22,624 nt of DNA from a virus: UHGV virus genome UHGV-0204244. One strand, 5' to 3'. The notes under the pieces were generated by a model, which saw only the letters and a list, made by a program, of their open reading frames with translations, did no database searches and was not told where the DNA came from. Position numbers and translations under genes: made by a program. The first letter of the stretch is position 1; each line of letters opens with the position of its first letter. Shown here one piece after another: positions 6,745 to 7,300 of this stretch.

Positions 6745-6814
6745 AAATCTAGTTTCCGGCTAAAATGGCATTGCCTTCATGATATCCTGTGAAAAACTAA
6801 GGAGAGTTAACCAT

Positions 6815-7300
6815 ATGAAAAAATCACTGTTAATTATCCCGCTTCTACTGGTTGGATGCGCAAAAGTAAGTGACTATCAAGCAAGTTGCGAACAACGCTA
6901 TCAAAAGCTTAGCGATATGGCTAATTGCCTTGATGCCAGCGTGAAGAACGACTCACGCATGGCATCAGCACCAACACCTAAGCTGTATGTCCTTGCTGCG
7001 AAGATGCTCGGGCAAGGTGTCGATGAAGGCAAGATAAGTGATGCACAGGCAAGGCTTGAGCTTCAGAATCTTTATGTTCAATTACAAAGCCAAGAACAAG
7101 CCCAACAAATAGCACAAAGCCAAGCATTCCAGCAGGCTTTATTGAATTATCAGGCTGTAAACACAATGCAAGCGATCGAACAAAAAGCTCGCCAGCCTGT
7201 TATAACTCAACCTTACCCAACACGCGTTGACACATATACAAACTGCAATTCAGGATTTGGAAACACGGTAACATGCAACAGTAGCAGTAATATCAGGTAG
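6815..7300 (+). CDS. Predicted lipoprotein with a Q-rich, probably coiled-coil, C-terminal region; function unknown (candidate superinfection-exclusion or lysogenic-conversion protein)
   Basis: Start at ATG 6815 with AAGGAG about 8 nt upstream. Signal peptide MKKSLLIIPLLLVGC has a lipobox (LVGC). Followed by a Gln-rich segment (QLQSQEQAQQIAQSQAFQQALLNYQ) and a Cys/Asn-rich tail (TNCNSGFGNTVTCNSS). It occupies the position that sieA and neighbours hold in P22. Confidence 0.7.
   Translation: MKKSLLIIPLLLVGCAKVSDYQASCEQRYQKLSDMANCLDASVKNDSRMASAPTPKLYVLAAKMLGQGVDEGKISDAQARLELQNLYVQLQSQEQAQQIAQSQAFQQALLNYQAVNTMQAIEQKARQPVITQPYPTRVDTYTNCNSGFGNTVTCNSSSNIR

Follow-up and report, generated by a model that had tools for sequence, protein, structure and literature searches.

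A conserved lipoprotein family in the sieA position of P22-like prophages and its possible role at the cell envelope

Cor (of phages phi80, N15, HK022 and T1) and Llp (of T5) are phage outer-membrane lipoproteins that block DNA entry; they are small, contain disulfides, adjoin genes for host recognition or entry and serve to protect the infected or lysogenic cell. In Streptococcus, the prophage lipoprotein Ltp of phage TP-J34, which is located at the external side of the cytoplasmic membrane, binds the tape-measure protein of the incoming phage and thereby prevents the injection of DNA, while lambda Bor and Iss and the plasmid-encoded TraT are mobile-element lipoproteins of the outer membrane that act in serum resistance or surface exclusion in the carrier cell. 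In P22-like phages (Lederbergvirus), the passage of DNA is blocked by SieA (types A, B and C). This inner-membrane protein spans the membrane several times, carries the motif FxRYPxEAxxFNK on its cytoplasmic side and acts on gp16 and gp20; sieA was found in only 22 of 66 such phages (Leavitt et al. 2024, PMC10883804). It belongs to the region between genes 16 and 9, termed the 'ant moron', which is hypervariable and recombination-prone and contains genes of unknown function; among sixteen genomes, ten types of it were distinguished (Villafane et al. 2008, PMC2629481). Here, we describe a lipoprotein gene that occupies the sieA position in the UHGV virus genome UHGV-0204244; the stretch analysed (22,624 nt, hereafter the window) represents that end of a P22-like E. 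coli prophage or phage at which the late genes lie.

Like sieA, the lipoprotein gene lies between gene 16 and mnt or gene 9, on the strand of mnt and convergent with gene 16; both appear to be prophage-expressed cargo, and the two were never found together in the loci examined. Unlike SieA, the product carries a predicted cleavable lipoprotein signal, lacks any transmembrane (TM) segment or sequence similarity to types A and B and has a predicted outer-membrane anchor. With Cor and Llp it shares the nature of a small phage lipoprotein adjoining entry genes, the probable disulfides and the predicted outer-membrane location, but it is larger (147 aa in its mature form) and, in a structure model, mainly helical. 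Cor and Llp act on FhuA, which P22-like phages are not known to use. Bor, Iss and TraT are comparable as lipoproteins of mobile elements; their architecture is nevertheless different, and no Pfam or PHROG match connects them with the protein described here. Ltp offers a mechanistic model for the idea that the lipoprotein binds an ejection conduit, although it differs in its Gram-positive host, its membrane, its sequence and its fold. The gene is genuine and strongly constrained, and the reading that we tentatively prefer is that its product acts as an envelope-level block to incoming phage DNA.

The gene and its place in the ant moron

An earlier note on this DNA, made from the letters alone, had assigned the lipoprotein to an open reading frame (ORF) of 173 aa at positions 6779–7300 (+). 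The ORF is present, but its start at 6779 has to be replaced by the likelier ATG at 6815, and the actual product most likely comprises 161 aa (6815–7300). This choice is based on the Shine–Dalgarno sequence upstream of ATG 6815 (Table 1), on the use of this start by the NCBI Prokaryotic Genome Annotation Pipeline (PGAP) in E. coli O26:H11 11368 and on the starts of the homologues, which share it from E. coli to Proteus: all 26 aligned sequences begin at the corresponding Met, save for extensions of 1 and 7 residues in two of them (P0071 and P0085). Moreover, DNA similarity to phages Gally and 720R6 covers only positions 6798–7299. The start at 6779 was rejected, as it has no Shine–Dalgarno sequence, is not conserved and falls outside the block of DNA homology.

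The P22 record has the gene order 16(+), sieA(-), orf59a(-), mnt(-), arc, ant, 9(+), and the lipoprotein gene takes the position of sieA in this order, on the mnt strand and convergent with gene 16. The sieA position had already been proposed in the earlier note, which was also correct in locating the gene 3' of mnt and in describing its transcription as directed against the late operon, since the strand is opposite to that of gp16, gp20, gp7 and the tailspike gene. The stop codons of the lipoprotein and gp16 genes are 14 nt apart in the window, and the distance ranged from 14 to 189 nt among the 73 loci in which it was measured.

The order tailspike(-), mnt(+), lipoprotein(+), gp16(-) recurs in VSe13, Gally, 720R6, the Proteus phage Brookers (whose lipoprotein is 55 % identical), the O26 prophage, Providencia and two Tatumella prophages, and the same order without mnt was found in a metagenome-assembled Enterobacteriaceae genome; a scan of genome contigs for related loci yielded only five loci. 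Across 90 related loci, the lipoprotein gene is regularly followed by the 3' end of the gp16 gene with no other gene in between, as seen in nine annotated or genomic loci and in 76 of 80 loci from IMG/VR. The downstream gp16 is of two types, that of P22 and that of Gally, which are only 33 % identical to each other, and the cassette is therefore not tied to one lineage of ejection protein. Among 5,426 complete E. coli genomes, 186 (~3 %) carry the gene, which is intact in 182 of them; the carriers include enterohaemorrhagic E. coli (EHEC) O26:H11, the O104:H4 outbreak lineage and the adherent-invasive E. coli (AIEC) LF82. As the P22-type gp7 gene is present in at least 1,167 genomes, about one-sixth of the carriers of P22-like prophages have the lipoprotein gene. 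The gene thus behaves like a moron, with mosaic borders that hug it and a distribution restricted to part of the P22-like prophages.

Searches with tblastn using the SieA proteins of P22 (type A) and HS1 (type B) detected nothing in the window or in 89 related loci, while the two types recovered each other at ~1e-18 to 1e-20 (P22 SieA recovered HS1 SieA at 1.7e-18). Likewise, none of the five phage records that contain the lipoprotein is among the 41 that contain SieA. The contention of the earlier note that the product does not look like SieA is thus borne out: there is no similarity to types A or B, and a Kyte–Doolittle scan found no TM-like segment in the lipoprotein and three in each SieA. 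The mutual exclusivity of the two genes fits an analogous role.

In several IMG/VR loci (among them L058, L063, L073 and L045), further small genes of envelope or accessory type occupy the slot between mnt and the lipoprotein gene. Their products are a lipoprotein of 139 aa encoded on the opposite strand (of the Gally gp14 type, expressed in LF82), a protein of 104 aa that has a signal peptide, an HExxH protein of 121 aa and a protein of 81 aa with two TM segments. The ant moron is a site where envelope cargo accumulates. The lipoprotein gene lies in the same variable region as the genes reported by Villafane et al. (PMC2629481), who name no lipoprotein, but it belongs to a widely conserved family, PHROG_6067, and is not a unique gene.

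Predicted product, family and distant relatives

The N-terminus of the 161-aa product, MKKSLLIIPLLLVGC, contains a textbook lipobox, and its parts agree with a signal for signal peptidase II (SPase II) and Lgt, namely an n-region (MKK), an h-region (SLLIIPLL) and a lipobox, LVGC, of the form [LVI][ASTVI][GAS]C. The lipobox reported in the earlier note is therefore real and spans residues 12–15; its Cys15 is nearly invariant among 99 aligned relatives. In E. coli, sorting by the Lol system is decided by Asp at position +2, without which lipoproteins are anchored in the outer membrane. The residue at +2 is Ala in this protein, and Asp is found there in no aligned family member, so that sorting to the outer membrane is predicted by this rule.

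The composition had also been read correctly: the protein contains 21 Gln residues, 16 of them within residues 84–135, and its tail (residues 136–161) includes five Asn, five Thr, four Ser and two Cys, both of which (C144 and C154) are conserved. The coiled coil predicted by the earlier note, on the other hand, is reduced in the AlphaFold2 (AF2) model to a single long helix (residues 76–125). A first run with an alignment of 26 sequences gave a mean predicted local distance difference test score (pLDDT) of 62, which rose to 80 with 99 sequences and to 90–95 in the N-terminal domain. In this model, helices at residues 18–28, 32–45, 47–50 and 53–70 are followed by the long helix, whose Gln-rich second half projects from the bundle as a stalk, and then by a linker and a C-terminal beta-hairpin (Table 1). 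C25 and C38 are invariant in the alignments, while C144 and C154 are nearly so; C25–C38 is a probable disulfide, and the conserved pairs fit two periplasmic disulfides. The hairpin, in which G149 is conserved as well, bears the motif C-x3-[YF]GNxVxC (residues 144–154, positions 7244–7276). The sequence YGNGVxC is the 'pediocin box' of class IIa bacteriocins. The resemblance has no statistical support and no Pfam bacteriocin model matches, so that it was set aside as probable convergence on a beta-turn.

Over its entire length, the protein matches PHROG_6067, annotated as 'unknown function' (E = 1.6e-110, residues 1–161 on profile positions 1–161 of 161). The 94 homologues come from Escherichia, a Salmonella phage, Citrobacter, Klebsiella, Serratia, Yersinia, Pectobacterium, Morganella, Providencia, a Proteus phage and Tatumella, and all are named 'hypothetical' or 'lipoprotein' with one exception, the Cronobacter dublinensis homologue P0023. 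In NCBI, the latter bears the name 'general secretion pathway protein GspK', which is erroneous and could spread to further annotations. Identity with GspK, a type II secretion pseudopilin, was rejected, as the match scores 18.9 bits against an NCBIfam cut-off of 130 and is confined to the Gln-rich residues 69–121; matches to DUF2802, GspK, CsgF and WTAP were dismissed as low-complexity noise. Pfam and NCBIfam scans of the lipoprotein gave nothing above threshold, a sequence profile search of the PDB yielded coiled-coil noise only, an Rfam scan of positions 6200–7500 was uninformative, and a literature search found no paper on the lipoprotein. Homology to a housekeeping lipoprotein, which the earlier note had regarded as fatal to a role in phage biology, did not emerge from the remote-homology searches; family members are often located on mobile elements, and some are chromosomal.

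A profile search of 1.84 billion representatives retrieved 250 proteins at E <= 0.001, and the superfamily amounts to ~250 clusters at 50 % identity, mostly lipoproteins of ~125–140 aa. The short relatives share the lipobox, the N-terminal domain and the C-terminal hairpin, while their connector is much shorter, as seen from the alignment gaps opposite the stalk in the ~130-aa relatives; to judge by this alignment, the stalk has, in effect, become longer in the P22-like subfamily. The N-terminal domain is the part common to the whole superfamily, the deep search aligning mainly to profile positions 1–100, and all 29 distant relatives scanned match PHROG_6067 over this domain, one of them also reaching 5.6e-4 with the Cor profile PHROG_1119. 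A Pfam scan of ten distant relatives gave nothing above threshold, and a protein search with the ~130-aa subfamily returned seven proteins with no informative names; the distant relatives are likewise unnamed.

The superfamily recurs on mobile elements. The genomic contexts of about eleven distant members were inspected, of which several are ambiguous (P0150 and P0143 among them). One member occupies the lambda 'rex position' of a lambdoid immunity region (Table 1), P0105 lies near a small terminase gene, P0119 and P0113 are carried by integrase-bearing islands, and others adjoin a giant polyvalent protein or TIR and STAND genes. The occurrence of the same N-terminal domain and hairpin on such different elements, as well as the TIR and STAND neighbours of one relative, would suit a general barrier to mobile-element DNA, which would act against other types of phage or against conjugation, and not specifically on P22-like phages, at a shared periplasmic step such as local opening of the cell wall or a common envelope protein. 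Plasmid entry-exclusion lipoproteins, such as TraT and TrbK, provide a precedent, and the Gally-type gp16 is annotated with a lytic transglycosylase domain in VSe13. We nevertheless regard such a general barrier as very unlikely, given that it is pure inference, that the contexts inspected are so few and partly ambiguous, and that no PADLOC match was obtained.

Expression, selection and possible function

The lipoprotein gene begins 70 nt 3' of mnt (the gap is 17 nt in Brookers), and a terminator scan predicted no terminator between them, so that the two genes are likely to share a transcript. Gally, 720R6 and VSe13 carry a divergent gene between mnt and the lipoprotein gene, and the latter requires its own promoter there. 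The possible regulation by Mnt put forward in the earlier note is more aptly described as co-expression with mnt. The Gally homologue GALLYPH_13 is 94 % identical to the lipoprotein of the window. In RNA-seq of the LF82 lysogen in LB, it reached 70 normalised counts against a prophage median of 15.6 (PMC9928086, S1 Table). This ratio of 4.5x, which concerns the Gally gene and not the prophage in the window, is just below the 5x cut-off used for morons in that study, and Gally was consequently called moron-free by its authors. The lipoprotein gene of the window is probably expressed in the lysogen.

The Gally homologue and its neighbours are also induced in Dulbecco's modified Eagle medium (DMEM) and in macrophages (log2 fold change 2.55, q = 4.7e-27; PMC9928086). 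This induction speaks for the main alternative role, which we consider doubtful, as a lysogenic-conversion or envelope-fitness factor that, like lambda Bor or Iss, has no direct effect on phage entry and contributes to the barrier, to stress signalling, to resistance against serum or host factors or to adhesion. The presence of superfamily members in apparently chromosomal, non-phage settings, the occurrence of the gene in EHEC O26:H11, O104:H4 and AIEC LF82, and the other secreted proteins and lipoproteins in neighbouring slots of related prophages point in the same direction. However, curing LF82 of the whole Gally prophage left its survival in macrophages unchanged (PMC9928086), and a function as macrophage-survival factor was accordingly rejected. 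Furthermore, neither Bor, Iss and TraT nor any other named envelope family resembles the protein, the over-representation of pathogens may stem from biased sampling of complete genomes, and a fitness role gives no reason why the gene is so strictly linked to that end of the ant moron where the ejection genes lie.

Comparison with the VSe13, Gally and O26 alleles revealed strong purifying selection (dN/dS, the ratio of nonsynonymous to synonymous substitution rates, of 0.03–0.04, with dS up to 0.55). dN is 0 in the Gln-rich stretch and the tail, and in the hairpin region it is 0 against a dS of 0.49–0.77 (VSe13 and Gally). A decaying or hitch-hiking ORF without function, or a structural or lysis (o-spanin-like) phage gene, is scarcely credible, even though the gene is small, annotated as 'hypothetical' and located in a recombination-prone region (PMC2629481). 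The selection data, which include the stalk and the hairpin, exclude a non-functional ORF or pseudogene, and the gene is intact across Enterobacterales as well as in the 182 E. coli genomes. An o-spanin or structural role was ruled out by strand and location, as the gene runs against the late operon and the lysis cassette lies far away, and transcription of the Gally homologue in the lysogen is at odds with either possibility.

The favoured reading, a block to DNA entry, draws on the occupied slot, the absence of SieA, the linkage to the ejection genes, the lysogen-expressed positions of relatives elsewhere and the precedent of Cor and Llp. We infer localisation, topology and exclusion activity as follows. 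The gene would be prophage cargo in a P22-like ant moron, read in the lysogen with or alongside mnt. Its product would leave the cytoplasm through Sec, receive its lipid at Cys15 and be delivered by Lol to the outer membrane, where it would be anchored in the inner leaflet. There it would present to the periplasm a disulfide-stapled four-helix domain, a Gln-rich helical stalk of ~4 nm, a flexible linker and a disulfide-closed beta-hairpin. It may bind either a conserved envelope component or the conduit of gp7, gp20 and gp16 that assembles in the periplasm, in such a way that superinfecting P22-like phages would adsorb yet fail at DNA delivery. The lipoprotein would then be a functional analogue of SieA acting from the outer-membrane side.

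As to the partner, the identity between E. coli and the Proteus phage is 55 % for the lipoprotein, 35 % for gp16 and 46 % for gp20; its low dN/dS and its higher conservation compared with these two proteins point to a conserved component of the host in preference to a variable protein of the phage. The dN/dS analysis saw no diversifying selection, although it would be expected if the lipoprotein were in an arms race with the hypervariable gp16 and gp20; such constraint also fits the host partner of a fitness factor.

Further observations count against an entry block. No homology of the lipoprotein to Cor, Llp, Ltp or SieA was detected, and the Cor profile PHROG_1119 aligns only to residues 1–31, the signal peptide, at E = 0.035. 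The scan of PADLOC-DB found no defence family at E <= 1, and structural comparison with Foldseek, for which the better AF2 model served in the case of the PDB, gave no informative neighbour there (best E = 1.7) or in BFVD (best E = 0.44). The regular association in IMG/VR, where a gp16 homologue lies directly 3' in 76 of the 80 loci and an mnt homologue 5' in 76 of the 80, comes from loci that are 97–100 % identical and hence are not independent observations. The superfamily members P0100 and P0110 are located among housekeeping genes such as uvrC, pgsA and bio genes. Finally, the mutual exclusivity with sieA could equally result from two cassettes competing for one recombination slot.

An extension of the entry-block reading, which we judge unlikely, is that the superfamily as a whole forms a new class of mobile-element entry blockers working from the outer-membrane side, with the lipoprotein as its P22-like representative. 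The helical domain would dock on a conserved envelope component, and the stalk would hold out the hairpin, closed by its disulfide, so as to obstruct the conduit that takes DNA across the periplasm. One exclusion module would in that case be common to prophages, satellites and conjugative elements, and P22-like phages would use it in place of SieA.

Neighbouring genes and implications

The features of the window are listed in Table 1, together with those distant relatives for which the position in their own locus is given.

Table 1. Positions of the genes and protein regions discussed, in the window unless another locus is named
Feature	Position	Strand	Remarks
Integrase gene	193-1371	-	
O-antigen acyltransferase ORFs	2373-4165	+	
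Tailspike gene	4191-6356	-	Pfam Head_binding 4.8e-65; PGAP start in O26
Mnt/Arc-family repressor gene	6478-6744	+	Directly 5' of the lipoprotein gene; Pfam Arc 1.1e-14, Repressor_Mnt 3.9e-12
Shine–Dalgarno sequence AAGGAG	6799-6804	+	Read from sequence; 10 nt 5' of ATG 6815
Lipoprotein coding sequence	6815-7300	+	161-aa prolipoprotein, stop codon 7298-7300; PHROG_6067
Predicted signal peptide with lipobox LVGC (residues 12-15)	6815-6859	+	Putative lipidated Cys15 at 6857-6859; Ala at +2
Compact helical N-terminal domain, predicted (residues 18-97)	6866-7105	+	AF2 pLDDT 90-95; invariant C25, C38
Gln-rich continuation of the last helix, predicted stalk (residues 98-125)	7106-7189	+	AF2 helix 76-125
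Pro-containing linker, predicted (residues 126-137)	7190-7225	+	AF2 coil, pLDDT ~57; variable in the alignment
C-terminal beta-hairpin, predicted (residues 138-160)	7226-7294	+	AF2 strands 138-146 and 152-160; pLDDT ~73
gp16-type ejection (DNA transfer) protein gene	7315-9162	-	74% identity to P22 gp16
gp16, gp20 and gp7 ejection genes	7315-11267	-	
Other virion genes	beyond 11267	-	
Distant relative P0116	locus L099, 3127-3513		3' of a cI-like repressor gene, divergent from cro/ninB
Distant relative P0118	locus L100, 212-589		Beside the gene for a 4,839-aa polyvalent ParB/Eco57I/helicase/MuF protein
Distant relative P0165	locus L006, 8001-8573		Beside TIR and STAND/WD40 genes

The tailspike ORF runs to 6404, its head-binding domain beginning at Met17, and the mnt ORF extends to 6445, the PGAP-type start, as in the O26 annotation, being at 6478. 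Between the divergent starts of the two genes (6356 and 6478), a near-palindrome, ATGCAACCA-N5-TGATTGCAT, is located at 6382–6404 and could be the operator of the Mnt homologue. The window contains no arc or ant partner for its mnt, and the target of control by the Mnt homologue may be read-through into the tailspike gene.

The acyltransferase region consists of two adjacent, separate ORFs, one with an AT3 acyltransferase domain (PF01757; 2373–3431, +) and one with an SGNH domain (PF19040; 3452–4165, +). The PF19040 description has this domain 'fused to AT3 domains', and the unfused arrangement in the window is unlike a one-piece O-antigen acetyltransferase; the pair may represent either a lysogenic-conversion gene that has been split or inactivated or an enzyme that genuinely consists of two parts. 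Between the integrase and acyltransferase genes, ~1 kb (1372–2372) without a long ORF is AT-rich and has repeated TTTGGTACAC-like words. It may contain attP or arm sites, which would suggest an excised or virion-form genome, or an integration layout unlike that of the O26 prophage.

The ant moron region and its genes of unknown function, the protein as a database 'hypothetical' and prophage envelope lipoprotein morons as a kind are already known. What appears to be new is the recognition that the lipoproteins constitute a conserved family, that this family alternates with SieA and that it is part of a large, mobile-element-linked superfamily.

As only a third of P22-like phages carry sieA (PMC10883804), the protection of lysogens of the others constitutes a gap, for which the lipoprotein is a good candidate owing to its place in the sieA slot, its absence alongside SieA and its very strong constraint. 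If exclusion proves true, a mechanism on the outer-membrane side would be added to the model of the inner-membrane SieA, and the crossing of the periplasm by the gp7/gp20/gp16 ejection conduit would become accessible to study. Exclusion would likewise provide a function for an uncharacterised lipoprotein superfamily and would bear on the prediction of resistance to O-antigen-specific podophages in therapy. If, instead, the lipoprotein is an envelope fitness factor, it would represent a new lysogenic-conversion gene of pathogenic E. coli.

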